DNA of 20,000 nucleotides from an uncultured virus (IMG/VR IMGVR_UViG_3300028372_000001) (Duplodnaviria; Heunggongvirae; Uroviricota; Caudoviricetes). Numbering within the stretch: position 1 is the first letter of the stretch; each line of letters starts with the position of its first letter. Made by a program: the position numbers and the translations under genes. Below, one piece after another: positions 3,112 through 20,000 of this stretch. A model generated the notes under the pieces. That model was not told the DNA's origin. It did not search any database and was given only the letters and a program-made list of their open reading frames with translations. The DNA is taken from the IMG/VR virus record IMGVR_UViG_3300028372_000001; one strand, given 5' to 3'.

Positions 3112-3928
3112 CCTGTTCCTCCTTATTATTGTTTTCTGTTACAGGGATTTCTTTACTCAACATAGCCAGTGACATCTTTTCAGCGAACTTGTTCACCGGG
3201 ACTGCCTGTGTTGCAATAGTTCTTTTTTCTTCTGCACGGTTGAAAATGTCTTTAAGATTTTGCTGAGTATCCGCACCATCTTTAGCGCCACTTGCAAGCT
3301 CTTCTTTAGCAAGAGCAAACGAAACATTACGGATGACTGATTTCCTGCGTTCTTCCAACGAAGGAATGGCGGCTTCCATGTGTTTGTCTTCGGGCATGAT
3401 ATATCTGTTGCTCATAATTCTCTGAACAAACATAGCTTCACTGGGAAAGCTCGAACGTGTGTTATGGTCAAACATTCTATTCCAAAGGTCTTTGCGGAGT
3501 GACCATTCTTGCTCTGTTACATTTTCATCAGGATCAGCGTTATTCCAATATCCAAAGTACTGGACCTGTGGGTGATCTAGGAATATTTTCTCCGAAGTGC
3601 GATCATCGAAGAAGAACATTGCAAGGGTATAACCATCTACGATTCCAATGGCGACACTGTAATCACTGGCTTCATCTGGTGGGAGCCTAACATGCCGCTT
3701 AGATGCTACGAGAAGGGGTATACGCTGGTCCTCATCGGGATTAAAATAATCCTGACCCATAACATGGTACATGTCATAAATTAGAGTAGAGGTGGCCAGA
3801 ATCTCTCTGGCGCGATCCATATAGACCGCTTCTTTAACAGGACCTCGAATGGAGTCCACGAAATCATACATATCTTGAATTGTGTAAACGCCGTTAAGCA
3901 TTACACCGTTGAATATTTTTGTTGACAT
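3071..3928 (-). CDS. Hypothetical phage protein
   Basis: Long ORF; likely start is the ATG at 3928 (MSTKIFNG) after GGGG rather than 3958. Contains a YWNNxDP...EW..R...W segment. No function recognised. Confidence 0.75.
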   Translation of the reverse strand: MSTKIFNGVMLNGVYTIQDMYDFVDSIRGPVKEAVYMDRAREILATSTLIYDMYHVMGQDYFNPDEDQRIPLLVASKRHVRLPPDEASDYSVAIGIVDGYTLAMFFFDDRTSEKIFLDHPQVQYFGYWNNADPDENVTEQEWSLRKDLWNRMFDHNTRSSFPSEAMFVQRIMSNRYIMPEDKHMEAAIPSLEERRKSVIRNVSFALAKEELASGAKDGADTQQNLKDIFNRAEEKRTIATQAVPVNKFAEKMSLAMLSKEIPVTENNNKEEQDGSDGISETSSED

Positions 3929-3942
3929 TTTTACCCCATATG

Positions 3943-3976
3943 TGAAAAGAGCGTGCATTGTAGCACGCTCTTTTCA
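3943..3976 (-). terminator. Intrinsic terminator, possibly bidirectional, after the HNH gene
   Basis: 14-bp inverted repeat tgaaaagagcgtgc-attgta-gcacgctcttttca with T runs on both strands. Confidence 0.75.
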
Positions 3977-3981
3977 TGAGG

Positions 3982-4635
3982 TCAAGCCTCGTGGCCAAAT
4001 ACTGGCAATGGATCGCTATGTAGTCTGCTCTCCCGAGGAACACCCTTCATCAACCACTCCATCTGATCCGCAAGAATTCTACGGTTCTTCAAAATTAGAG
4101 CCTCGTGGTACGATGGGACATACGGAACGTAAGTCAACTGCATGTTCGCCTGTTCCGGTGTGCGGTCGTCTTTACGCTGATTGCAAGAACGACAAGCAGT
4201 TACTACATTCTGCCACACGTCTGGCCCACCCTTCGACTTCGGATGTACGTGATCGCGCGTTAGCTTACCGTTTGCGTACTTCGTTGCACAATATGCGCAA
4301 ACGTTTCGGTCACGGGTGAACAACTCGCGATTGTTAAGAGCCGGTGCCGTTCTACGATACTTGGTCGGGCTAGTACCGTTATCGAGGGCTACGATAGTGT
4401 CCAGAATCAGCGTAGACTGCTTACCAGTCTTTACGTTGATACCACCACGTAGAAGAACCTCGTACTGACCAACACTCCATAGGATTTTACCCTTAGCCGA
4501 GTAAAACGCGGAATCTTGATAGGTAATCCAATGAAGGGCTTCGCCTCCCGAATTCAAGGCCAAAATCAACGGTAGCGAATCAACACCATCAATTACCGGA
4601 GCACTGCCCCCTACTTCTTTATTGGTCAACATCAT
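3982..4635 (-). CDS. HNH endonuclease (McrA/HNH_5-like, Zn-binding)
   Basis: LFTRDRNVCAYC...TRDHVHPKSKGG...W-x-NVVTACRSCNQRK. Confidence 0.92.
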   Translation of the reverse strand: MMLTNKEVGGSAPVIDGVDSLPLILALNSGGEALHWITYQDSAFYSAKGKILWSVGQYEVLLRGGINVKTGKQSTLILDTIVALDNGTSPTKYRRTAPALNNRELFTRDRNVCAYCATKYANGKLTRDHVHPKSKGGPDVWQNVVTACRSCNQRKDDRTPEQANMQLTYVPYVPSYHEALILKNRRILADQMEWLMKGVPRESRLHSDPLPVFGHEA

Positions 4636-4646
4636 TTTCCCTTCTC

Positions 4647-5159
4647 CTATACAAAGATTACTTCGTCAAAACCCTCCTGCTTAGTCGGCGGGATATAGCT
4701 CTTGGCCATATCTCCCATGACTTTCGCTGGAATGTGCTTTCCCGTTTCACGCTCACGCTTTGCCAAACGGTCTTCCAGTTCCTGATCGTCTACCTCGAAC
4801 GATACTGCAATCTTATAGTAATCGTCAGGAACTTTCCGAAGGATACCCCTTCGCTTCTTGGGAGTCAAGTTAGTCTGGTCCCAAATAATGCTCTTACCAT
4901 TATTTACTTCTTCGCGAAACTTTTGCTTCATGATATGGGTAGCCTGCCCTACATGCTTGCCAAAGCCGGAAGTATAGTCCATTCCATCAGCTTCCGACAG
5001 ACGCTCGATTTCGTCATCGCTTGAAACAATGACATAATCAATATCAGTCTGCGCGAGCATACGATCACGCCAAGTTGACTTACCGGAACCCGGCAGGCCA
5101 ATCATCACAATGATTTCGGGACGCTGGGCGTCTCTTTCTCGCAACATCTTGGGATTCAT
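4647..5159 (-). CDS. P-loop kinase (AAA_33 / polynucleotide-kinase-like)
   Basis: Walker A GLPGSGKST, SSDD, IIWDQTN, R-x-x-R lid and C-terminal P-x-x-x-EGF. Confidence 0.87.
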   Translation of the reverse strand: MNPKMLRERDAQRPEIIVMIGLPGSGKSTWRDRMLAQTDIDYVIVSSDDEIERLSEADGMDYTSGFGKHVGQATHIMKQKFREEVNNGKSIIWDQTNLTPKKRRGILRKVPDDYYKIAVSFEVDDQELEDRLAKRERETGKHIPAKVMGDMAKSYIPPTKQEGFDEVIFV

Positions 5160-5952: not shown

Positions 5953-5964
5953 ATATTCTCCAAT

Positions 5965-5986
5965 AAAAAAGGGGGCCGAAGCCCCC
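5965..5986 (-). terminator. Intrinsic terminator of the NAD operon, with cUUCGg tetraloop
   Basis: Minus strand reads gggggc-ttcg-gccccc-tttttt. Confidence 0.88.
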
Positions 5987-6047
5987 CCCCCATCGAATCC
6001 CCATCAGTGTATAGTGCTCACTTTTGGGGTAACTTAAACTGCTTCGC

Positions 6048-7484
6048 TTACTTGCCGGGAAAATCCCGTAGGGCTGCGAGTTCGCGAACTTCATCAAACG
6101 TTTGCTTCCTAAGAATCTTACCATTCTGGAAAACCGTGTCCATTGCAACTACTTCGGTGTTCTTCATAGTGTCGTGCTGGTTAATCGTCCTGTACTCTTT
6201 CGTCTCAGTATCTTGAACGAGAGTCAAAATTCCAGCCTTCGACGCCTTGGTAGGATCAGTGATCGGAACCTTCTGAATATCACGAGCATCACCATCAACA
6301 ACGATGTGAGAGCCCTTGATTGCAAACCGCAGTGTATCACGATCCAGCTTCCGAAGCAAGCCTCCACCACTACCAAAGTTGATGTTATCTGCCGAGTAGC
6401 CCAGAGATTCAAAGTTGCCAAGGATATCTTTGACCGCTTGCAAATCAACACCATCACCTTGAATGATTCGAACGCAATCGTTCAATACCTTGAAGCCCTT
6501 GTCGTTGACATAGGAGCCAAACAACTCGTCCAACTTCGTGACAACAAGCTCGGTCATTTCAACAGGCACGCCACTATCGGGGCGAATAACGATCACACCG
6601 TTGCTTTCGATTTCTTCTCGAAGCTCACCAAACATTTCGATGGCTGCAACAAGATCGTAGGTGTCACATACTACAGAGCAGATGCCGGTCTTAGGCAGCA
6701 CGGTACGGACGATGTTGGCGAAGAAATCAAACTCACGAAGTTTACCCCATCCAATAGTAACAGTGTGTTCCGTAGCAGGAATTGAGAATCCGGCCATGCC
6801 ACTGGCTGTACCGTAGTAGTCTTCTGCCATGCAAATGCCAATCATGTTATCAGTGGAAGTACCCGAGGTCAGGTGAGCAGCGCCACCAACCATGGCTTCT
6901 TCCTTGGTGCTAACACCACGACTACCAAAGTCCACAAGCTTCGTGTTTGCAAGTTCCGGCGAACCCGTGCGTTCAAGAGAATTCTTAAACACTTTGAGGA
7001 ACTCACGAGAGTGGGTTGCAACCGTAATGGGGTACCAAGAGCGCATGTAAATGTTTTCGAAGTACGAAGCACACCAAGACACATTAAATCGAGGATCAGT
7101 CGTCTCGATAGTCATTAGTGCATTGTTTACCGGAACAACAGCACCTTCCTTAACAGCCCTGACCTTAATGGGAATAAATCCATTGTGATCATTAACAACA
7201 GCTTCCCAACCTTTACGGTTGAATGCGGCTGTAGTACCTATGTGCTTTTCAATGAACTCTTCGGCCTGATCAACCATTTCCATGGTTACAGGTTCCATCA
7301 TTTCATGCTCAAGAATGTACTGAAGGCCGAAGAAAACGGTCTCATCGTACAACGCACCCGCTCGCGCCTCAAGATATACTTGAGAGAAGCTAGTGCCATT
7401 CTCCATGAACATCCAGTGCCCAACTTTATAAGTGTCGGTGTTCAAGATAACATTATCAGTAAGTTTAAGTTCTTGGTTTTTCAT
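6048..7484 (-). CDS. nadV: Nicotinamide phosphoribosyltransferase (NAMPT)
   Basis: TDTYKVGH, DFGSRG, TDN, SIPATEH (phospho-His), SVVCDTYD, VIRPDSG, IIQGDG, FGSGGGLL and RDT..FA.K are all intact. Confidence 0.95.
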   Translation of the reverse strand: MKNQELKLTDNVILNTDTYKVGHWMFMENGTSFSQVYLEARAGALYDETVFFGLQYILEHEMMEPVTMEMVDQAEEFIEKHIGTTAAFNRKGWEAVVNDHNGFIPIKVRAVKEGAVVPVNNALMTIETTDPRFNVSWCASYFENIYMRSWYPITVATHSREFLKVFKNSLERTGSPELANTKLVDFGSRGVSTKEEAMVGGAAHLTSGTSTDNMIGICMAEDYYGTASGMAGFSIPATEHTVTIGWGKLREFDFFANIVRTVLPKTGICSVVCDTYDLVAAIEMFGELREEIESNGVIVIRPDSGVPVEMTELVVTKLDELFGSYVNDKGFKVLNDCVRIIQGDGVDLQAVKDILGNFESLGYSADNINFGSGGGLLRKLDRDTLRFAIKGSHIVVDGDARDIQKVPITDPTKASKAGILTLVQDTETKEYRTINQHDTMKNTEVVAMDTVFQNGKILRKQTFDEVRELAALRDFPGK

Positions 7485-7506
7485 TTGCCATATCTCCTAT
7501 GTGCAA
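7485..7506 (-). promoter_or_regulatory. RBS-containing hairpin, copy 2, directly before the NAMPT ATG
   Basis: Minus strand TTGC-A-CATA-GGAGA-TATG-GCAA then ATG. The 18-nt core is identical to 8637-8654. Confidence 0.7.
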
Positions 7507-7549
7507 GTTTAGTTTTACGAGATTACGCTCAATGCTGTTTACTATAACA

Positions 7550-8635
7550 TCACCCGATGAAATAGTCAAGTATATCAGCATGGTCTTCGAAAAGTTGATC
7601 CCGCATTCTATGGACTTCAGCGAATGGGAACCACCATGCTTTCAAGATTCCGGGACCTGCCCGTAAGCCCTTCACAGGGAGTGGACGAGAAGAATCAAGT
7701 TCGTAGTAGAAGGCCGTTGTAAGCGTTCTATTTCGGTCTGTCGTAAGCCTAGCACGCAATGAGCGATTAGGATTGTCAAATTCGTGTTTATCAGTCAATG
7801 AACCTTTGAATGCTTTTACTGGCACATCAAGATTAGTCTCACTTAGCACCGCACGAATAGAAGCGTCTTCAAGCGTTTCATTCGGTCCAAGGTGAACCCC
7901 CGGCAATGCCCATTGTCCATAGCCCATGGGGTTTCCACGCTGCACCAATAGCACGTGTCCAGACTGTGCCACAACCGAATCAACCGTCTGGAATGTAATG
8001 CCGTATGGTAGAGCCTCATATAACTTTTCTTCACTCCTAATATATTCATATTCTTCACGAAGAATCTTGAATTCATCACTTAGAATGAAGTCTTGCATCC
8101 AGTTGTAAACATAGGGAGTAACATTACTTTCAATGTAACCGAGGTGCCCCTCAAATATAAGTTCACGGATTTTGGTAGAGGACACAACCTTACCAGCGTT
8201 TCCTTTGACGTATGGCCCAGTTTCAACAAACGACCAGTTAGGGAAGTTCTCACGAAGGTAATAACTACTTGAATCCTTTTCGTGTCCAATAATTCCGATA
8301 CGCGGATTGGTCTTGCCAGTCGTATAACGAGCAATATCAGCTACAGAACCTTGAATAAAAGTAATCCATTTAGATTCTTTGTAGCGATGATCTTCCGCAT
8401 GTATGAATGTAAGTTTAGAAAAATCAATACCATCTGCAAGGGCAGAGTTGCTAAGCATATCTTGCCGCTCTGCGGCGGTCCATGGATTTTTTGGTGTGCG
8501 GGCGGCGTTGGATGAACCAATTATGATAATAACTTGATCTGCCGCGTTGGCTGCCTGTCGCAGCGTAGACATATGTCCATCATCGGAAGGTTCGAACCTT
8601 CCGATGTAAACAATTGCATCGTATTCTTTACTCAT
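7550..8635 (-). CDS. nadM: NMN adenylyltransferase-Nudix fusion (NadM-Nudix/NatV-like) with degenerate catalytic motifs
   Basis: YIGRFEP..GH, IIGSSN..RTPKNPW, IGHEKDSSSYYL..FP.W, SSTKIRE, TVDSVV.QSGHVLL, WALPG, RSLR.R..T and FEDH. Start placed at the second ATG (8635) from SD spacing; the ORF track uses 8641. Confidence 0.92.
   Translation of the reverse strand: MSKEYDAIVYIGRFEPSDDGHMSTLRQAANAADQVIIIIGSSNAARTPKNPWTAAERQDMLSNSALADGIDFSKLTFIHAEDHRYKESKWITFIQGSVADIARYTTGKTNPRIGIIGHEKDSSSYYLRENFPNWSFVETGPYVKGNAGKVVSSTKIRELIFEGHLGYIESNVTPYVYNWMQDFILSDEFKILREEYEYIRSEEKLYEALPYGITFQTVDSVVAQSGHVLLVQRGNPMGYGQWALPGVHLGPNETLEDASIRAVLSETNLDVPVKAFKGSLTDKHEFDNPNRSLRARLTTDRNRTLTTAFYYELDSSRPLPVKGLRAGPGILKAWWFPFAEVHRMRDQLFEDHADILDYFIG
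8581..8606. repeat. Perfect 26-bp palindrome inside the NMNAT signature codons
   Basis: catcggaaggttc|gaaccttccgatg is its own reverse complement. Confidence 0.95.
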
Positions 8636-8655
8636 AGCCATATCTCCTATGTGCT
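8636..8655 (-). promoter_or_regulatory. RBS-containing hairpin, copy 1, directly before the NMNAT-Nudix ATG
   Basis: Minus strand AGC-A-CATA-GGAGA-TATG-GCT then ATG. Confidence 0.7.
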
Positions 8656-8671
8656 GAGTGATATACTGTGT

Positions 8672-8700
8672 ATTATATAACTATTTATCTAACTTGTCAA
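8672..8700 (-). promoter_or_regulatory. Consensus sigma70 promoter of the NAD operon, with a GATAAATA box (8682-8689) in the spacer
   Basis: Minus strand TTGACA-agttagataaatagtta (17 nt)-TATAAT. Confidence 0.9.
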
Positions 8701-8710
8701 GTGGTATAAT

Positions 8711-8738
8711 AAGAAAGGGGCCAGATGGCCCCCTTCTT
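8711..8738 (-). terminator. Intrinsic terminator after the structural gene 8755-9999
   Basis: Minus strand ggggcca-tc-tggcccc-tttctt. Confidence 0.8.
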
Positions 8739-8754
8739 AAGCATTATATAGGGA

Positions 8755-9999
8755 TTAAATCTCTACGTCAATGCGTGTTGCGTTTACAGTTGTGGTATCC
8801 GTAGATGTAATCTGCAGACCCATCGTCTGAGCAGCGCCTGTACCCGATAGTACCACATCGAACTTTAGACCTAAAATAGCGCCATTCAAGCGAAGCTTGG
8901 AACTGACGCTCCAATCAACCTCGGTAGCATCGGCCCCGGCTGTCCCATCATGCGTTGCATAAACTTCAACAGATTCTTTCTGCGTCGGATCACCTTCATC
9001 AAACACAGTGACAAACCATTTTGAGGTCTGAATATCATCAATTAACACAGTATCCACTGTCGTTGCTGTCGTAACGCCCGTAGAAACAGACGTGTTTGGC
9101 GCAACATCAGCGATAGCAATGTCAAGAGCGTCAATAGATGCTGTAATGGTCTGACCATCTGTTACGAAATTATCTTCAGTGTAAGTTCGGTTACCAATAG
9201 CGATATCAAGAGCATCCAAAGATGCGGTTACAGTCTCGGCATCCGTTACAATGTTTTGTTCAGTGTATGTGCGATCACCAATTGCGGTATCAAGTTCACC
9301 AATTGCAGCCTCAAGTGTACCACCTTGAGTAACAACTACTGCGGAGGAATAAGTTGGCGTTTCGGAGCCAGCAGCCGTCTTACCAATGAAGGCACGAATA
9401 AATGCTAGTTCCGCGTTATTTGTAGTAGAAGCGATTTGCTGCCATACTGTACTGTCATACACCCATTGTGACTCAGCATACGTACCATCTTGAACAAGTA
9501 ATGCGTCGCCGTCGGTTGCTGTGTTTACGTCTTCCGTGAATGTCCAGTTCCCTGTTGAACCAGAAACAATATAAACGTTCTCGTTACCAGTTGTCAAATC
9601 CGTAAAGAGAACGCGATCATCTGCGGCAATTGTAACACCATCAACCGTATCACCTACGTTTGCCGCTGTTTCTGCTGCGGTAATATCAGCGTATGTGGTA
9701 TCATCAAGTACGAGGATGGGCTCTCTCCATGAGAGACCGTTGATTAGGTTATCAACGTAAGACTTGGACGCAGACTGTACCCAGTCTGCAGCTGCATTTG
9801 TGTCAGTAATTTTCTGATAAACTACAGAAATTGATGCCGATGCGTCCGTTCGCAAATAAATGGAACCAACGGGGGCATCATCTTGGTAACTGGTATCGCC
9901 ACCGGGTACGCCAGAACCAGATAGGACGCTACCCGCACGGGTACCGTCTTCTTCATCAATTGAAAGTCCAAGTGCAACTCTGAATAGATCTAATGCCAT
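8755..9999 (-). CDS. Putative virion structural (fibre/decoration-type) protein
   Basis: Acidic and Thr/Asp/Ala-rich. Has KSYVD...GLSW and VDGVTI...DRVL....EN.VY segments typical of phage fibre proteins, 28-aa internal repeats and a C-terminal beta-rich domain. Late box CATAAATA and AAGGA SD upstream. Confidence 0.7.
   Translation of the reverse strand: MALDLFRVALGLSIDEEDGTRAGSVLSGSGVPGGDTSYQDDAPVGSIYLRTDASASISVVYQKITDTNAAADWVQSASKSYVDNLINGLSWREPILVLDDTTYADITAAETAANVGDTVDGVTIAADDRVLFTDLTTGNENVYIVSGSTGNWTFTEDVNTATDGDALLVQDGTYAESQWVYDSTVWQQIASTTNNAELAFIRAFIGKTAAGSETPTYSSAVVVTQGGTLEAAIGELDTAIGDRTYTEQNIVTDAETVTASLDALDIAIGNRTYTEDNFVTDGQTITASIDALDIAIADVAPNTSVSTGVTTATTVDTVLIDDIQTSKWFVTVFDEGDPTQKESVEVYATHDGTAGADATEVDWSVSSKLRLNGAILGLKFDVVLSGTGAAQTMGLQITSTDTTTVNATRIDVEI
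9113..9320 (-). repeat. About 84-nt (28-aa) degenerate tandem repeat, about 2.5 copies
   Basis: LDTAIGDRTYTEQNIVTDAETVTASLDA / LDIAIGNRTYTEDNFVTDGQTITASIDA / LDIAIAD. Boundaries approximate. Confidence 0.85.
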
Positions 10000-10020
10000 G
10001 AGTATTTTTCCTTACTATTA

Positions 10021-10028
10021 TATTTATG
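10021..10028 (-). promoter_or_regulatory. Late promoter box CATAAATA
   Basis: About 22 nt upstream of the ATG at 9999. A second copy, CTAAATA, is at 10098-10104. Confidence 0.7.
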
Positions 10029-10044
10029 AAAGTGTTTAACATAA

Positions 10045-10077
10045 TTACACTTTTACGGCACATATATCTAATGCCAT
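10045..10077 (-). other. Chimeric mini-ORF MALDICAVKV*
   Basis: ATG GCA TTA GAT ATA TGT GCC GTA AAA GTG TAA, preceded by the duplicated AAGGA SD and TAAATA box. Translation is unproven. Confidence 0.55.
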
Positions 10078-10129
10078 GAGTATTTTCCTTACTATTATAT
10101 TTAGTTTAGTTTGAATATTATATTCATAA

Positions 10130-10501
10130 TTACACTTTTACGGCACATATATCTAAAGGATGAGCTTCATTATTTGTCAAGGAGAATACAATGTTCGTGT
10201 TAGGCACTCCAGTTGCTACAATAACGTCAACTTCTGTGTTAGTATCATCACCAAGCTTTGATGATAGATTCCAATGCACATTACCTTCGTAGTCATGTAC
10301 CGTGGTGAGAACAAAATATTGTGTGCTTTGAATTAGGGAAGTTCTATCAGACACCGAAATTTGCCACCGTACAAAAGGGCACCCTGAACCGTCAAATGTT
10401 TCGACTATTTCAGTATCGCCCGGTGAAACGGTTAGCTCGATTGGTAAAGTATTGCCGCCTGTCCCACCAACAATTCGCCTTGTTAATATAATTCCTTCCA
10501 T
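10130..10501 (-). CDS. Small beta-rich putative virion protein resembling the C-terminal domain of 8755-9999
   Basis: VETFD...VRWQISVSD...VHD...SSKL pattern parallels VDTV...SKWFVTVFD...THD...SSKL. CATAAATA upstream. Confidence 0.7.
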   Translation of the reverse strand: MEGIILTRRIVGGTGGNTLPIELTVSPGDTEIVETFDGSGCPFVRWQISVSDRTSLIQSTQYFVLTTVHDYEGNVHWNLSSKLGDDTNTEVDVIVATGVPNTNIVFSLTNNEAHPLDICAVKV

Positions 10502-12541: not shown

Positions 12542-12569
12542 AAAAAGAAAGGGGGCCAGTTGGCCCCCT
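12542..12569 (-). terminator. Intrinsic terminator after the 743-aa gene
   Basis: Minus strand agggggcca-ac-tggccccct-ttcttttt; stem similar to 8711-8738. Confidence 0.85.
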
Positions 12570-12595: not shown

Positions 12596-14827
12596 TTACT
12601 TGGAATCGTCTCCAGTTGCAAGATAATTCACAAGCTGACCGGGGAACATGTCCCAAATCGGGCTCATAAGAGTACCAAAGAAGATTTGAGCTTCCATAAA
12701 GCCTTCGTGATCACCACGACCCAAGTTCTTCTTGATTTGCTCTAAGCACTCAATTGCGTTGTGCTTAACGCTCTTCTCATTATACCCGTTGTTGTCGTAA
12801 CGTTCAACAGATTTCTTGAGTTCAGTGATACGCTTGTCAATTGACGACATAACTTCACGAGGAACCTTAACTTTGGTGCCAACACGGTCAGCACGTCCAG
12901 TACGCTCATCTTTCTGCTGCTGATCATCTACTGCATCATATGGCTGATCACCACCGAAAACAGTTGCATCAACTGCCGCTTCACCCAAGGACCCGGATTT
13001 AACCTTACTGACTGGTACTTTGATTGATTCTTCTTCCCCTACGTCAACAACACAAAAATCACTCTCAGGTCCCGTTGTATCCGTTCGAACAACCTTACCG
13101 GAGACCATCTTACCTTTATGTGGTACTTTTACCGTGTCGCCTTTTTTATATGATTCATCAACGCGACCAGATTCACCGTCCCACTCACCGACGCCTACAC
13201 GCTTACCGTCTTTTTTAACAAAAGCTTGAGCAATATCTTTATCACCTTCAAACTCTACGGCACCATGCTTCTTCTTGAGTGCAGCCTTCCAAGCAGAATA
13301 TGTCTGCTGACCTTCCATGGTTGTTCCTTCATTCAGACCTTTGAGCTTATCCTTAAGAGCATCAATTTTAGCATTGATATCATCTCGGCGCTTATGACCA
13401 TTAGTCTGTACACGCTTAGCAATTAGCTCATCGATTTCCTTTTCAATTTTTCTTTTATCTTCAGCTTCAGTTACACTGCCTTCATTCAGACCTTTGAGCT
13501 TATCCTTAAGAGCATCAATTTTAGCATTGATATCATCTCGGCGCTTATGACCATTAGTCTGTACACGCTTAGCAATTAGCTCAGCGATTTCCTTTTCAAT
13601 TTTTCTTTTATCTTCAGCTTCAGTTACACTGCCTTCATTTTTAGGAACACAGTTAGGAACTTCTTTGCCGTTCTTCTTCTTTGTTCCAACCATTTCATGA
13701 CTGTCCCAGCATGGGTCTTCACCATCCATTTTCTTCTTAGCTTCAGTAACTTCTTTCTTATCGTTAAGAAGCTTCTTGACTGTGGATGCTTTAACCATAT
13801 CGACCTTGCCATCTTTGGTTGCAGAAATACCAACCATGCTAGCTGGCCCATCAGGGACAACAACAAACATCTCCTTACCACCACAAGTTACTTTGTCACC
13901 TTTCGAGAACACTTTACTCGTATCTTTGGCTTTCATATCATCAGAATTATCAGATTCAGTCATACGGGCGTTGCCCTTGCCAAGCTTGCGGGAAGCCTTA
14001 GATGCTGCACGCTTCTGCTCTTTGGAACCCGGACGACCGTATGAGCCAGCAGCCTTTCGACCGGTAGCTTTGTCTTCCTTTCCTTCCATATCAATGGTGC
14101 CGCCACCAAGATTTACAGGCTTACTGTAAATGTCTGTGCCCATATCACTCATATCGCCCATTTCACCATCGGCGCTATCTGGGTCTTCTGGAGACTCACT
14201 GTCGAGGTAATCGGTAGCGGTGTCAAGATACTCGGCTGCAATTGTAACCTTTGATTGAACCCATGCTGGAAGCTCAGAACCATCATCGATCATAGTGCAT
14301 AGACGCTCGATGTTGTCCTTCATGTTATCCATTTGACGACGAGCCATTTCACCATCTGGGTGCTCATCTCCCATATCATCCATATCATCCATATCGTCCA
14401 TGTCGTCCACAGGCATACGGTCGCCGCCTTTGCTTACTTCCATATCACTATAGCCGTTATTGCGAAGGACAGAAGCCATTGGGCGCATTTCCATCATACC
14501 CTCTAAGCGTAAATCAAGCTTTTCAGCCCCACGCCGAGCATGCAATATAACGGAAGGAACATATTCCTTACTTTCCGTCATTGATCCCGCTTCTTTGTCG
14601 GATAGATACATATCAGTGCGGCGATCATAGTACTTGCCCTCTTTCTTATCGTAGTACACAACTCGGCCATTTTTCATTTTGAATGGACCCTCTAGGCCCT
14701 TTACTGGTCCCTGATGATCCAATGAATCGTCTTCCTCGATTTCATATTTTTCATAAAGACTAGTGATGAAGCCACTTTTTTCAGCGACACCAGATAGTTC
14801 TAGGAGTCTACGTAGGTCTTTGTTCAT
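12596..14827 (-). CDS. Large modular, highly charged protein; putative capsid-internal protein processed by the prohead protease
   Basis: N-terminal LRRLLELSGV; many hydrophobic-x-E-[S/A/G] sites between short modules; late box AATAAATA and GAGG SD upstream. Confidence 0.65.
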   Translation of the reverse strand: MNKDLRRLLELSGVAEKSGFITSLYEKYEIEEDDSLDHQGPVKGLEGPFKMKNGRVVYYDKKEGKYYDRRTDMYLSDKEAGSMTESKEYVPSVILHARRGAEKLDLRLEGMMEMRPMASVLRNNGYSDMEVSKGGDRMPVDDMDDMDDMDDMGDEHPDGEMARRQMDNMKDNIERLCTMIDDGSELPAWVQSKVTIAAEYLDTATDYLDSESPEDPDSADGEMGDMSDMGTDIYSKPVNLGGGTIDMEGKEDKATGRKAAGSYGRPGSKEQKRAASKASRKLGKGNARMTESDNSDDMKAKDTSKVFSKGDKVTCGGKEMFVVVPDGPASMVGISATKDGKVDMVKASTVKKLLNDKKEVTEAKKKMDGEDPCWDSHEMVGTKKKNGKEVPNCVPKNEGSVTEAEDKRKIEKEIAELIAKRVQTNGHKRRDDINAKIDALKDKLKGLNEGSVTEAEDKRKIEKEIDELIAKRVQTNGHKRRDDINAKIDALKDKLKGLNEGTTMEGQQTYSAWKAALKKKHGAVEFEGDKDIAQAFVKKDGKRVGVGEWDGESGRVDESYKKGDTVKVPHKGKMVSGKVVRTDTTGPESDFCVVDVGEEESIKVPVSKVKSGSLGEAAVDATVFGGDQPYDAVDDQQQKDERTGRADRVGTKVKVPREVMSSIDKRITELKKSVERYDNNGYNEKSVKHNAIECLEQIKKNLGRGDHEGFMEAQIFFGTLMSPIWDMFPGQLVNYLATGDDSK
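13326..13639. repeat. 153-bp (51-aa) tandem duplication, two copies
   Basis: Period 153 (ccttcattcagacc at 13326 and 13479). One visible difference: EIAE versus EIDE. Confidence 0.95.
14371..14409. repeat. 9-nt minisatellite encoding (DDM)n
   Basis: ccatatcat ccatatcat ccatatcgt ccatgtcgt cca. Confidence 0.85.
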
Positions 14828-16501: not shown

Positions 16502-16710
16502 AATCTACTACTCCTGAGCAATGTTTTCAAACTTTCAATATTATGCTTAGCATTTGACAGCTGAGTTCGTGTGAATGACAGGCGCTTAGTAACGTGGGCT
16601 AGTTTAGTAGATATTTTATTGACAAGGGAAGTAGTAGCCTTTAGGTCTTTCCTAAGCTGCGTGACTTCTTTCTTGAGGGAATCTATTTCCCGTTTAACAT
16701 CTGGTTCCAT
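16498..16710 (-). CDS. Small basic coiled-coil protein
   Basis: Clear heptad Leu/Ile/Val pattern; ATGA overlap with the i-spanin gene. Confidence 0.65.
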   Translation of the reverse strand: MEPDVKREIDSLKKEVTQLRKDLKATTSLVNKISTKLAHVTKRLSFTRTQLSNAKHNIESLKTLLRSSRL

Positions 16711-17297
16711 GCTTTGTTTACCTTTCTATATACGCCTAATGCATATTTAGCATCATCTAGCGCGTTGTGTGCATCACGAGCCTTGTATCCTAATCGCTCA
16801 AACAAGGTATTTGAATCGTATTCTTTAACTGTTCCCATCGAAAGGGCAAATGTATCAAAGTAACGGTGCCCAATCTTGATGTTCTTAAGTCCATACCTAT
16901 GGAGCAAATCCTTAAAGAAAGGAACGTCGAACGACATGATATTATGTCCAAGGAAGTACAACGGCTTCTTAACGTCTATGTGCTTAATGATGAACTCTAG
17001 GATCAAGACAACAGCTTCTTCTTCCTCAACTCCATTTTCTTCCAAATATTCTTTGGTCAACCCATGGACAGCCTGCGCTTTTGCATCCCACTTGGAGTAA
17101 CCATTCCACTTTACTTCGATATACATTTCGTCAATTATCTCGAATGTATCAGCGTCTGCGATTACCAACCCCCATGAAACTGCCTGATAGTTCTTCGCAA
17201 CACTTTCATTACACTGGCTGCGGTTGGCCTCAAAATTAATGCCACTTGTTTCACAATCGATGGCAATAACCTTATCTATTTTTATCCCTGATGCCAT
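16683..17297 (-). CDS. DEDDh 3'-5' exonuclease (DnaQ-like)
   Basis: ExoI IDCETSG, ExoII GHNIMSFD, ExoIII HNALDDA; also VHGLT. Confidence 0.92.
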   Translation of the reverse strand: MASGIKIDKVIAIDCETSGINFEANRSQCNESVAKNYQAVSWGLVIADADTFEIIDEMYIEVKWNGYSKWDAKAQAVHGLTKEYLEENGVEEEEAVVLILEFIIKHIDVKKPLYFLGHNIMSFDVPFFKDLLHRYGLKNIKIGHRYFDTFALSMGTVKEYDSNTLFERLGYKARDAHNALDDAKYALGVYRKVNKAWNQMLNGK

Positions 17298-17875
17298 AAA
17301 CCATCTCCTAGTTCTCTTAAACTTTCATTGAGTACATTCACACGGGCAGTTAAATGTGGGTTGCTGATAGTTACCACCCGAGCAGAAAATTCTTTACTGT
17401 ACCGGTAAATGCACATGTCTGCCAAATTAGCAAAGTGTGGATTGGTAGAACGCACTCCGTCACTCTCAGGAGTGTAAACCCTTCCATTAAGGTAAATCAC
17501 TCGATCAAAGTATTCCAATTGAGCTTCTTTGCATTGGTTGTAATAATCACTTAACCATTCAGAATATTCATTGAATGGGCCGACACTAAGAACGGCATAA
17601 GTAAAGATATCGGCAAATGTTCGCTCCACTAAATGAATGCCGCTACTTTGATTGATTAATCTTAGTGTGCGAATATGATCTTCAATCAATTGATCTTGGA
17701 ATTTGATTTTAAGGGGCATGTAAGCATTTACTTCACCCAAGGTTATATCCCAACGCTTTAACAAATTCCGTGAAGTTTGAACATCATGAGCACTGAAACG
17801 TCTATTATTTTCAGTTGCGGCTTTAATCAGCGTGGACTTACCTTGACCTTGTGATCCAGAAATACCTATAATCAT
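17282..17875 (-). CDS. P-loop nucleotide kinase/ATPase (AAA_28 / dNMP-kinase-like)
   Basis: IGISGSQGQGKST, ERTFAD and DGVR. Confidence 0.8.
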   Translation of the reverse strand: MIIGISGSQGQGKSTLIKAATENNRRFSAHDVQTSRNLLKRWDITLGEVNAYMPLKIKFQDQLIEDHIRTLRLINQSSGIHLVERTFADIFTYAVLSVGPFNEYSEWLSDYYNQCKEAQLEYFDRVIYLNGRVYTPESDGVRSTNPHFANLADMCIYRYSKEFSARVVTISNPHLTARVNVLNESLRELGDGLWHQG

Positions 17876-19152: not shown

Positions 19153-20000
19153 ATGAGTAGGATTGTCCCGGTTTACATCGACCTCACTACCGGCAAGTAT
19201 GCCGTGCGCGATACTGAGATTGGAGATGACTTCAGAGCATATGAAGTTATAGTAGACACCGCCTCGGCAGTGTGGTCTATTGCGCATGACAGAAATACCA
19301 AAAGTCTTGTGGTACAGGTATTCCAGAATGGTAAAGAAATTGAAGCCAATAGTATTGATGTTACAAGCCCTAACGTTGTAGAAATTTCGTTCTCAGAACC
19401 AATTACGGGTGTTGCCTATCTATTTGTTTACAATTTAGACAGTTTTGTTCCATCGCCAACACCTACGATCACACCTACGATCACACCAACTCTTACTCAG
19501 ACACCAACGACTACCATCACCCCGAGTGTTACAGGGACACCGGCTGTTACGCCAACACCAACACTTTCGGCTGGTGTTACGCCAACTGTTACACCAACAT
19601 CTACCGTAACAGTGACACCAACGTTGACACCAACGGTTACTGCTAATGCTACTGTGACACCAACGGTTACTGCTACTGTGACACCTACTGTGACACCAAC
19701 GGTTACTGCTACTGTGACGCCAACAGCTACAGCAACAGCAACAGTTACACCAACGGTTACTGCTACAGTGACACCGACAGTGACCGTGACACCGACAGTC
19801 ACAGCGACGCCAGCGACAACAGTTACACCAACGACGACAATTACACCTACTGTGACACCTACTGTGACACCACCGGTTACTGCTACTGTGACGCCAACAG
19901 CTACAGCAACAGCAACAGTTACACCAACGGTTACTGCTACAGTGACACCGACAGTGACCGTGACACCGACAGTCACAGCGACGCCAGCGACAACAGTTAC
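19153..20000 (+). CDS. Putative virion appendage protein: about 95-aa beta domain then a long Thr/Pro/Val/Ala repeat (runs off the window end)
   Basis: Manual translation (not in ORF track): MSRIVPVYIDLTTGKY...WSIAHDRNTKSLVVQVF...VEISFSEPITGVAYL...PSPTPTITPTITPT...TVTPTVTATVTPTATATATVTP..., open to 20000. Confidence 0.88.
   Translation, partial: MSRIVPVYIDLTTGKYAVRDTEIGDDFRAYEVIVDTASAVWSIAHDRNTKSLVVQVFQNGKEIEANSIDVTSPNVVEISFSEPITGVAYLFVYNLDSFVPSPTPTITPTITPTLTQTPTTTITPSVTGTPAVTPTPTLSAGVTPTVTPTSTVTVTPTLTPTVTANATVTPTVTATVTPTVTPTVTATVTPTATATATVTPTVTATVTPTVTVTPTVTATPATTVTPTTTITPTVTPTVTPPVTATVTPTATATATVTPTVTATVTPTVTVTPTVTATPATTV
19673..20000 (+). repeat. 174-bp (58-aa) near-perfect tandem repeat within the Thr-rich tract
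   Basis: Copies start at 19673 and 19847; one visible mismatch (caacggt versus caccggt); second copy cut by the window end. Confidence 0.9.

Follow-up and report, generated by a model that had tools for sequence, protein, structure and literature searches.

What leads two genes of a phage to begin with the same 18 nucleotides? The window analysed here is a stretch of 20,000 nucleotides from an uncultured virus of the Caudoviricetes (IMG/VR IMGVR_UViG_3300028372_000001). It contains a natV-like gene, encoding a fusion of a nicotinamide mononucleotide (NMN) adenylyltransferase with a Nudix domain, and nadV, encoding a nicotinamide phosphoribosyltransferase (NAMPT), and the same 18-mer stands directly before each of them. 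Together nadV and natV form the phage pathway NARP2, which is described as rebuilding nicotinamide adenine dinucleotide (NAD+) and countering bacterial immunity that depletes it (PMC13464706). Literature searches found no description of the control of this pathway. A first-pass annotation of the window read the 18-mer as a hairpin with the Shine-Dalgarno (SD) sequence in its loop, and proposed that both genes are co-regulated at translation by a bound protein, possibly the degenerate natV product or the host protein CsrA.

The 18-mer belongs to something larger, a two-hairpin NAD-salvage leader motif which is not in Rfam 15 and is common to bacteria and phages. The 18-mer is probably the translation-initiation hairpin of this conserved leader RNA, here called P2, and would serve the clade of the window phage as its shared translational operator.

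The repeated hairpin

The 18-mer GCACATAGGAGATATGGC occurs exactly twice in the window, both times on the minus strand, at 8654-8637 and 7504-7487, and the copies end 1-2 nucleotides ahead of the start codons of the natV-like gene and nadV. Exact matching recovers the two positions given by the first-pass annotation, and none would be expected by chance, as no copy arose in 200 shuffles that preserved dinucleotide composition. No third copy was found in the window when up to three mismatches were allowed. A candidate at 4699-4719 was rejected; it lies within a coding frame (MGDMAK) and has GGAGATATGGCC alone in common with the element.

The predicted fold begins with the pairs G-C and C-G, followed by a bulged A (8652 in the natV copy, 7502 in the nadV copy), the pairs C-G, A-U, U-A and A-U, and the pentaloop GGAGA. 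This loop is the SD sequence, at 8647-8643 before natV and 7497-7493 before nadV. RNAfold returns the structure as both the minimum free energy and the centroid fold, in agreement with the hairpin first proposed. The energy of the bare 18-mer is -2.9 kcal/mol, that of the nadV copy is -6.4 kcal/mol (z -3.5), and that of the natV copy with its outer pairs is -8.2 kcal/mol (z -2.4). The flanking bases differ between the copies yet still pair, as the annotation had noted. Hairpin copy 1 gains the pair A8655-U8636 and occupies 8636..8655 (-), and copy 2 gains U7505-A7486 and U7506-A7485 and occupies 7485..7506 (-); both are of the P2 type. With these pairs included, the last base of each stem directly precedes the ATG, at 8635 for natV and 7484 for nadV.

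Each copy of the 18-mer also contains an ATG of its own (8641-8639 and 7491-7489), two nucleotides past GGAG, and the listing of open reading frames (ORFs) places the natV start at the first of these. Among relatives the internal ATG is variously in frame, out of frame or followed immediately by a stop codon, which argues that the real starts are those at 8635 and 7484.

A covariance model of the 18-mer element, R1, matches the window at the two sites alone, so the claim that no other gene of the window is preceded by the element holds. On the whole of a related 84-kb viral contig R1 matched the natV and nadV leaders and nothing else, and on a 118-kb contig it gave one strong match and one weak match at an E-value of 0.35. 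The 18-mer element is not a generic ribosome binding site. Elsewhere in the window, at 17298-17320 (-), the sequence GAACTA-GGAGA-TGGTTT before an RNase T-like exonuclease ORF (16686-17297) could form a loop hairpin with two G.U pairs; this hairpin may be due to chance.

Conservation and covariation in related phages

Further relatives were gathered by scans with protein alignments, a single NadV protein query having given none in viral contigs; the loci collected are numbered with the prefix L. The exact 18-mer was found in two uncultured viral contigs, of 84 kb and 18.9 kb. In the larger contig it precedes both natV (protein 75% identical) and nadV (71%), and the two 18-mers have been kept with a putative endonuclease gene inserted between the genes. 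In the smaller contig it precedes a natV (54% identical) that starts with GTG. In the natV-nadV interval of the IMG/VR contig L019, an ORF of 245 amino acids (4136-4873) has by eye the look of a free-standing homing endonuclease. This ORF has an SD-in-loop hairpin of its own, GCAGTAG-AAGGAG-CTATTGC, and the 18-mers that flank it are intact.

Other relatives carry altered versions of the element in which pairing is kept. The nadV leader of L043, ATACATAGGAGATATGAT (ATAC..GAT), has two pairs changed on both sides, and the nadV leader of L045, GCACATTGGAGAAATGGC (CATT..AATG), has its closing pair flipped. In the natV leader of L095, ACAGATAGGAGTTATCGT (CAGATA..TATCG), a C-G pair has become G-C, and in the natV leader of L045 (GTAC) one pair is now a G.U wobble. 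Of the six pairs that make up the 18-mer stem, three thus show compensatory changes, and there is one wobble change besides. The final loop base varies between A, C and U. The bulge varies as well. Some copies have none, and G is the bulged base in a third copy of the element, which stands before a 115-residue ORF that follows natV in L068 and L095. Outside the 18-mer the leaders cannot be aligned, and the more distant NadV phages L009 and L011-L013 gave no match to it.

The test of covariation used 19 distinct sequences and eight pairs, the six of the 18-mer and two flanking ones. Pairing was kept in 92.1% of 152 cells, against 75.9% in shuffled alignments, and five of the eight pairs show changes on both sides; positions 3-6, 8-11 and 14-16 of this set were fixed by the search pattern, which limits the unbiased part of the test to three free pairs inside the 18-mer and the two that flank it. 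The outermost pair is GC in 11 sequences, AU in four, UA in three and CG in one. The covariation score was 0.395 compared with 0.098 in shuffles, slid controls reached at most 0.129, and none of 500 shuffles equalled the observed value, a count that is not a probability because the sequences share descent. The homologous leaders therefore passed the test of covariation that the first-pass annotation had asked for, with both sides changing and pairing kept, and this supports the predicted 18-mer hairpin as a selected RNA structure.

A wider family of hairpins in phages

All fetched phage loci were scanned for any GGAGN pentaloop with at least four uninterrupted flanking pairs. Many divergent phages were found to have P2 hairpins, with very different stems, ahead of natV and nadV; examples are TTTAGA-GGAGT-TCTAAA, TGATAA-GGAGT-TTATCA, ACAC-GGAGA-GTGT and TATAG-GGAGA-CTATA. 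Throughout the family the pentaloop is the SD sequence (GGAGN or GGAUU) and the 3' arm extends to the start codon, which begins between -4 and +7 nucleotides relative to the 3' end of the stem. The bulged A of the window is missing from most members. The median energy of the hairpins is -2.3 kcal/mol in phages and -3.4 kcal/mol in bacteria. L014-L018 carry other P2 stems, and nadV of phage KVP40 has the variant ATGG-GAG-CCAT alone.

The hairpin is strongly associated with the two genes. Among GGAG sites 4-11 nucleotides before a start codon in the same loci, it is present at 88 of 162 natV and nadV sites and at 9 of 156 sites belonging to other genes (Fisher p 7e-23); the first denominator is too high because it includes in-frame sites within the genes. 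When redundant leaders are removed, 58 of 89 natV leaders and 38 of 63 nadV leaders of phages carry it. Under a slightly different rule 12 hairpins were found before other genes, and these include two PnuC genes (PF04973) and four small ORFs adjoining natV.

Small ORFs of 74-122 amino acids directly adjoin natV in L106 (1205-1531), L059 (2781-3005), L109 (1282-1503), L021 (2654-3004), L031 (846-1211), L068 (4097-4441) and L095 (4100-4444). A Pfam search gave no family for six of the seven at an E-value of 0.01 or tighter, and the ORF of L021 has a sub-threshold match to Pox_A_type_inc alone (18.2 bits, cut-off 21.4). Because all seven carry the leader motif, they may belong to the phage NAD-salvage set. 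The viral contig L021 also encodes a permuted transfer-messenger RNA (Rfam RF04321, 101 bits) at 1557-1925, about 1 kb upstream of its natV cluster.

In coliphage RB43 natV and nadV lie 71 kb apart, and each is preceded by AACGT-GGAGY-ACGTT. The complete RB43 genome (180.5 kb) has no further occurrence of this hairpin at a gene start; a third match to the pattern lies within coding sequence, has no GGAG and was rejected. Upstream of RB43 natV, at L125 1378-1476, there is an unannotated short frame of about 30 codons, hydrophobic by eye, which ends about 25 nucleotides ahead of the natV start with the hairpin in between.

Bacterial leaders and a second hairpin

A scan with a 30-sequence alignment yielded eighty bacterial loci that encode NadM-Nudix homologues, a three-sequence NatV alignment having given none. 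By a strict rule P2 is present in 36 of 76 natV leaders and 33 of 63 nadV leaders. The carriers include Burkholderia, Ralstonia, Lysobacter, Xanthomonas and Thiothrix; across phages and bacteria together the genes are natV, nadV and sometimes pnuC. Burkholderia and Ralstonia have TGAG-GGAGC-CTCA, and CTAGA-GGAGC-TCTAG before nadV. The Lysobacter and Xanthomonas form is CCGTGAG-GGAUU-CUCAUGG, with the ATG within the 3' arm, that of Thiothrix is TCAGTAA-GGAGC-TTACTGA, and Psychrobacter has GCAGA-GGAGT-TCTGT before nadV.

The bacterial loci also contain a second hairpin, P1, upstream of P2, and many leaders of phages have it too. P1 has a variable stem of 3-11 base pairs, a G-C closing pair and the loop AYAGA, and is separated from P2 by a G-poor linker of mostly 6-16 nucleotides. 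It is present in 107 of 194 P2-bearing leaders, with the loop ATAGA in 47, ACAGA in 38, AAAGA in nine, AGAGA in seven and other sequences in six.

A covariance model of both hairpins, R2, matched the 80 bacterial loci 91 times, always on the gene strand and always at a position corresponding to the natV or nadV leader. It had no match in the Deinococcus loci. The phage loci gave 78 matches, 77 of them on the gene strand. The 76 of these that were classified (L061:1-49 was left out) stand before natV in 36 cases, nadV in 30 and neighbouring ORFs including PnuC in eight, and in two cases before no ORF of at least 50 amino acids. On five whole genomes of 1.8-7.7 Mb, R2 found the natV and nadV leaders alone, apart from one weak extra match which lies within an argC-like coding sequence of a Campylobacterales genome and was rejected. 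There were no matches at E-values up to 0.05 in 150 other genomes of the class.

The two hairpins covary in both groups. The phage alignment is 94.0% paired, with all ten pairs changed on both sides and a score of 0.880 against 0.198, and the bacterial alignment is 93.5% paired, with a score of 0.688 against 0.193; the percentages are inflated because the alignments were fitted to the model and the seeds chosen for pairing, and the informative part is the variety of pair types. Neither observed score was reached in 500 shuffles of each alignment. The top ten column pairs by mutual information are precisely the ten modelled base pairs, and a search by mutual information for a pseudoknot or switch helix found nothing beyond the two modelled helices and their extensions. 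G.U pairs exceed A.C mismatches in the stems, a mark of RNA from the sense strand; the excess is clear in phages (46 versus 12) and weak in bacteria (32 versus 23). In the loop of P1 the conservation is A 95%, Y 88%, A 97%, G 100% and A 99%, and in that of P2 it is G 98%, G 99% and A 96%, then G or U, and Y 91%.

A search of the bacterial loci for a conserved regulator gene beside natV and nadV found none. Adjacent genes vary from locus to locus and include hisI-like, TauE, response regulator, IS605 transposase, hydrolase, DEAD helicase and NADAR genes. The Campylobacterales locus L172 has a NADAR-domain gene (PF08719) directly after nadV, at 3920-4465.

The place of the window in the family

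Both hairpins of the window are P2 hairpins with a GGAGN loop at the start codon, and both lie on the gene strand before genes of the natV, nadV and pnuC set. No P1 was found upstream of them, R2 having no match in the window at E-values up to 1, and its relatives L019 and L043 likewise gave no match. A sigma-70-like promoter, TTGACA-17-TATAAT, lies upstream of the natV-like gene at 8672..8700 (-) and agrees with the consensus at 12 of 12 positions; from this consensus match alone the natV leader is predicted to be about 30 nucleotides long, which is too short for P1. Instead, 34-55 nucleotides upstream, L019, L043 and L045 have a hairpin whose loop is GGAGU or GGAGC and whose 4-bp stem covaries.

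The stem CATA-GGAGN-TATG occurs together with a canonical P1 in L106, L094 and L114, which suggests that the window form is a P2-only derivative with a bulged A. By this comparison the window phage and its near relatives have lost the canonical P1. In the window clade and the RB43 clade the copies within a genome are identical and are nearly frozen across relatives; in genomes with the full motif the natV and nadV stems often differ within one genome.

Proposed mechanism

P2 would display the SD bases GGAG as a five-base loop, the spacer between SD and AUG would pair with the bases just upstream, and the start codon would lie at or inside the foot of the helix. The ribosome would then initiate only once the weak P2 helix opens, and an agent that stabilises or opens this helix would therefore determine, for both genes at once, how much product is made. 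The likely role of P1 in the full motif is that of a sensor or docking partner. In the window clade a single factor that recognises the sequence, most likely a protein, may act on P2, which comes close to the proposal of the first-pass annotation.

P1, whose loop is nearly invariant and whose distance from P2 is short and fixed, should have a specific partner. As there is no conserved regulator gene in the bacterial loci, this partner would be a small molecule, either of the two enzymes, or a component found in all cells. A factor confined to phages, of the RegA/RegB type, is unlikely as the general partner because the motif is present in bacteria. The leader motif probably controls the amount of NAD-salvage enzymes made. 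We infer from the sequences that this is regulation rather than mere tuning, and in the same way its direction and the nature of the effector.

Several points weigh against this reading. Regulation is deduced from position and conservation alone. The hairpins are weak, both the bare 18-mer and the medians of the family, and by themselves would have just a mild slowing effect on initiation. Among phage leaders, at least 14 of natV and at least 13 of nadV were scored as hairpin-less, some of them owing to misplaced starts, and to these are added the Deinococcus loci without R2. The statistics must be discounted for the positions fixed by the search pattern, for shared descent and for alignments fitted to their own model, and the G.U excess is weak in bacteria. 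Finally, if P1 is the sensor, the window copy may be unregulated. Translational co-control of the two genes, as first proposed, nevertheless keeps the support of a selected structure that is restricted to these genes and sits at the site of initiation; neither of the two binders first proposed is supported, and CsrA does not stand as the general partner, for reasons given below.

Alternative explanations

Because the motif is so portable, a sensor of metabolites competes seriously with a protein operator. P1, linker and P2 would together bind an NAD-related metabolite (NAD+, NMN, nicotinamide, ADP-ribose or phosphoribosyl pyrophosphate) and so alter the availability of P2 and its SD loop; the P2 of the window would be what is left of this sensor, either still docking the ligand or now constitutive. 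The motif accompanies its genes through phages and several bacterial groups without a conserved regulator gene nearby, and each gene has a separate copy, even inside one operon. Its conserved bases lie in unpaired loops, above all that of P1, its stems vary freely, and natV, nadV and pnuC belong to one pathway. The known NAD+ riboswitch classes are given as just two, both taxonomically narrow (PMC7749635). However, few conserved bases remain for a binding pocket once those of the SD sequence are discounted, the covariation shows no pseudoknot or switch helix, and the window and RB43 clades, with P2 and no P1, are a poor fit to a two-hairpin sensor. We regard a riboswitch-like sensor of this kind as unlikely.

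A broader form of the idea is possible but doubtful. P1, linker and P2 would be a third, widespread NAD-related riboswitch class or another self-contained sensor, and the window form would be its replacement by a protein operator. If so, the sensor would read NAD+ or a product of its breakdown (ADP-ribose or nicotinamide, for example), and phages would translate the enzymes of NAD+ rebuilding when the NAD+ pool collapses, for example under an NAD-depleting anti-phage defence. The bulged-A, P2-only form of the window would then mark a lineage whose sensor gave way to a dedicated protein operator.

The hairpin could also be a structural ribosome binding site that needs no ligand. It would pre-organise or insulate the SD sequence and give a fixed, modest rate of initiation, and the copies would be alike through duplication or gene conversion. 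The weakness of the hairpins is consistent with this, as are the location of the SD bases in the loop instead of inside the stem and the existence of P2-only forms, and mobile auxiliary genes would profit from a start site that is independent of context. Such a structure is nevertheless improbable as the explanation, as it does not account for the near-invariant P1 loop and the G-poor linker at a fixed distance, for the rarity of the hairpin before other genes with the same SD sequence, or for a bulged A and stem conserved base for base in relatives whose NatV proteins are 49-75% identical.

In a further alternative the pathway regulates itself. The NMN adenylyltransferase-Nudix protein, or NadV, would bind the hairpin and repress both mRNAs, with NAD-related ligands modulating the binding. 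The element always accompanies these genes, and the P2-only phages, with identical copies in each genome that are nearly frozen across relatives, look as one sequence-specific binder would predict. The natV-like product of the window is indeed degenerate, as the first-pass annotation stated. Its HxGH motif reads DDGH (GRFEPSDDGH in place of GRFQPFHxGH), the first His being replaced by Asp, and its Nudix box is RAVLSET compared with RELxEET. The change of the Nudix box is common to the five closest relatives, giving RA[VIL]xxET in the window clade, and the loss of the His is seen in the window alone. This degeneracy recalls the inactive Nudix domain described as the effector domain of NrtR (PMC2330246). 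On the other hand, Pfam finds the cytidylyltransferase-like and NUDIX domains alone in the window protein, with no RNA-binding domain seen. RB43, which is likewise P2-only, has intact HxGH and Nudix motifs, and degeneracy is thus uncoupled from the type of hairpin. In the wider family the natV and nadV stems differ within a genome, as in Burkholderia (TGAG..CTCA and CTAGA..TCTAG), and the natV leaders of Psychrobacter fall into the class without a hairpin while the nadV leaders of the same loci have one. Autoregulation by these enzymes is quite unlikely.

The textbook target of CsrA is a hairpin over a ribosome binding site with GGA in its loop, and the first-pass annotation had suggested that host CsrA (or RsmA) binds the loop and blocks the ribosome. 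The loop of P2 is of this type; its GGA overlaps the SD sequence, and G, G and A are its three most conserved bases, the fourth being G or U. A csrA gene is present in four of the five motif-bearing genomes searched. In the fifth, a 7.7-Mb Burkholderia genome with both copies of the motif, none was found, and host CsrA as the general binder is for this reason not borne out. The CsrA dimer uses a second GGA site nearby; none was seen by eye in the approximately 17 nucleotides between the predicted transcription start and the natV hairpin of the window, and P1 has no GGA. CsrA has a broad set of targets, and the present hairpin marks a single pathway. This explanation is very unlikely. The least credible is an operator in the DNA bound by a dimeric transcription factor such as NrtR, which would suit short inverted repeats near promoters and the control of nadV and nadM operons by NrtR, whose sites are however described as 21-bp palindromes with a GT-N7-AC core (PMC2330246), whereas the present element has freely varying arms, a fixed asymmetric centre and an excess of G.U over A.C in phage stems, and always lies between promoter and start codon on the gene strand.

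The natV-nadV unit and other features of the window

The natV-like gene occupies 7550..8635 (-), starts at ATG 8635 and encodes 361 amino acids (PF01467, PF00293). The nadV gene follows at 6048..7484 (-), starts at ATG 7484 and encodes 478 amino acids (PF18127, PF04095). A second promoter-like site, TTGACT-17-TATAGT, lies over the end of natV at 7541..7569 (-). It agrees with the consensus at 10 of 12 positions, with TG before the -10 element, and on this consensus match alone a separate nadV transcript could be made. A hairpin resembling an intrinsic terminator, followed by a T run, closes the unit at 5968..5991 (-). Three related GC-rich terminator-like hairpins (AAAGGGGGCC-loop-GGCCCCC) lie in the window at 5962-5987, 8708-8733 and 12543-12568, and are apparently a single terminator family of this phage. 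No phage records near-identical to the window were found, and the identity of NadV to its best named phage relatives is below 45%.

The window contains three other groups of repeats. A tandem duplication of 153 nucleotides in perfect register, 99% identical, lies at 13326-13631 inside a 743-residue ORF (12596-14827, -). Tandem segments at 9984-10156, with a 32-nucleotide exact repeat 85 nucleotides apart and a 25-nucleotide repeat 78 nucleotides apart, lie at and just upstream of the start of a 414-residue ORF (8755-9999, -). A long array of repeats with periods of 12 and 18 nucleotides runs from 19447 to the end of the window at 20000, in ORFs that are open at the end; by eye it would encode a repeat rich in Thr, Pro and Val.

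Significance and comparison with known systems

A conserved RNA element at both starts is a concrete handle on the timing of production of the NAD-salvage enzymes. It is common to phages and bacteria, and in the loci examined no regulator gene is linked to it. Should the complete two-hairpin leader sense a metabolite, the NAD pathway would have a riboswitch class of broad distribution, compared with two known classes that are rare and narrow; that NAD+ riboswitches are scarce is stressed in the NAD+-II paper itself (PMC7749635). Even as a protein site or a fixed structure it would be a compact, portable module of translation control, and the motif is a useful annotation marker for NAD-salvage cassettes in phage genomes.

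At the gathering score, Rfam 15 gave no family at the leaders of the window, L001-L003 and 20 further loci, and with E-values up to 1 it gave none at the leaders of 10 loci. The Rfam models of NAD+-I (nadA) and NAD+-II (pnuC) had no match in the leaders searched. No RNA motif before nadV or nadM was found in the literature searched, including three large motif surveys (PMC8632094, PMC11109978 and PMC5737381) whose supplements may list more.

The element also has points in common with several known systems. The MS2-type coat-protein operator is a short bulged-A hairpin over a translation start, with the four-base loop ANYA. The likeness drawn by the first-pass annotation holds for the short hairpin at the start and for the bulged purine, A8652 and A7502, which lies four pairs below the loop and was fixed as A by the search pattern in the set of 19 sequences. 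It fails in the loop, which is a pentaloop (GGAGA, GGAGU or GGAGC) and not ANYA, and in the bulge, which most of the family does not have; moreover, the carriers are bacteria and double-stranded DNA phages without a coat-protein partner. The MS2 operator is thus an analogy alone. The hairpins bound by CsrA and RsmA share GGA in the loop of a short hairpin overlapping the SD sequence, and differ in the respects weighed above.

The regulators NrtR, NadR and NiaR share the target genes of the present motif, and the nadM-nadV and prs-nadV operons are described as targets of NrtR (PMC2330246). These proteins bind operators in DNA, whereas the present element behaves as an RNA structure of the mRNA strand and has no linked regulator gene.

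Two NAD+ riboswitches invite comparison. NAD+-I (the nadA motif) has two tandem stem-loop domains, the second of which holds the ribosome binding site (PMC7297122, PMC7708056); unlike the present motif its stem-loops are bulged, with a ACANCCCC bulge, and it is described from Acidobacteria, before nadA (PMC7749635). NAD+-II (the pnuC motif) is likewise linked to genes of NAD salvage or transport and, with the ribosome binding site involved, is expected to control translation (PMC7749635, PMC8632094). Its architecture is different, with P1, P1a and an internally bulged pseudoknot, and it is described from Streptococcus alone (PMC7749635). The PnuC genes of two phage loci carry the present motif.

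The closest known layout is that of the guanidine-II riboswitch, by analogy and not by membership. The guanidine-II riboswitch (mini-ykkC) consists of two small hairpins with conserved loops, free stems and a linker of variable length, placed at the ribosome binding site and acting on translation. Its loops are two identical ACGR tetraloops which pair with each other, whereas in the NAD-salvage leader the two loops differ (AYAGA and GGAGN), the SD sequence is itself the second loop, and the genes are those of NAD salvage.

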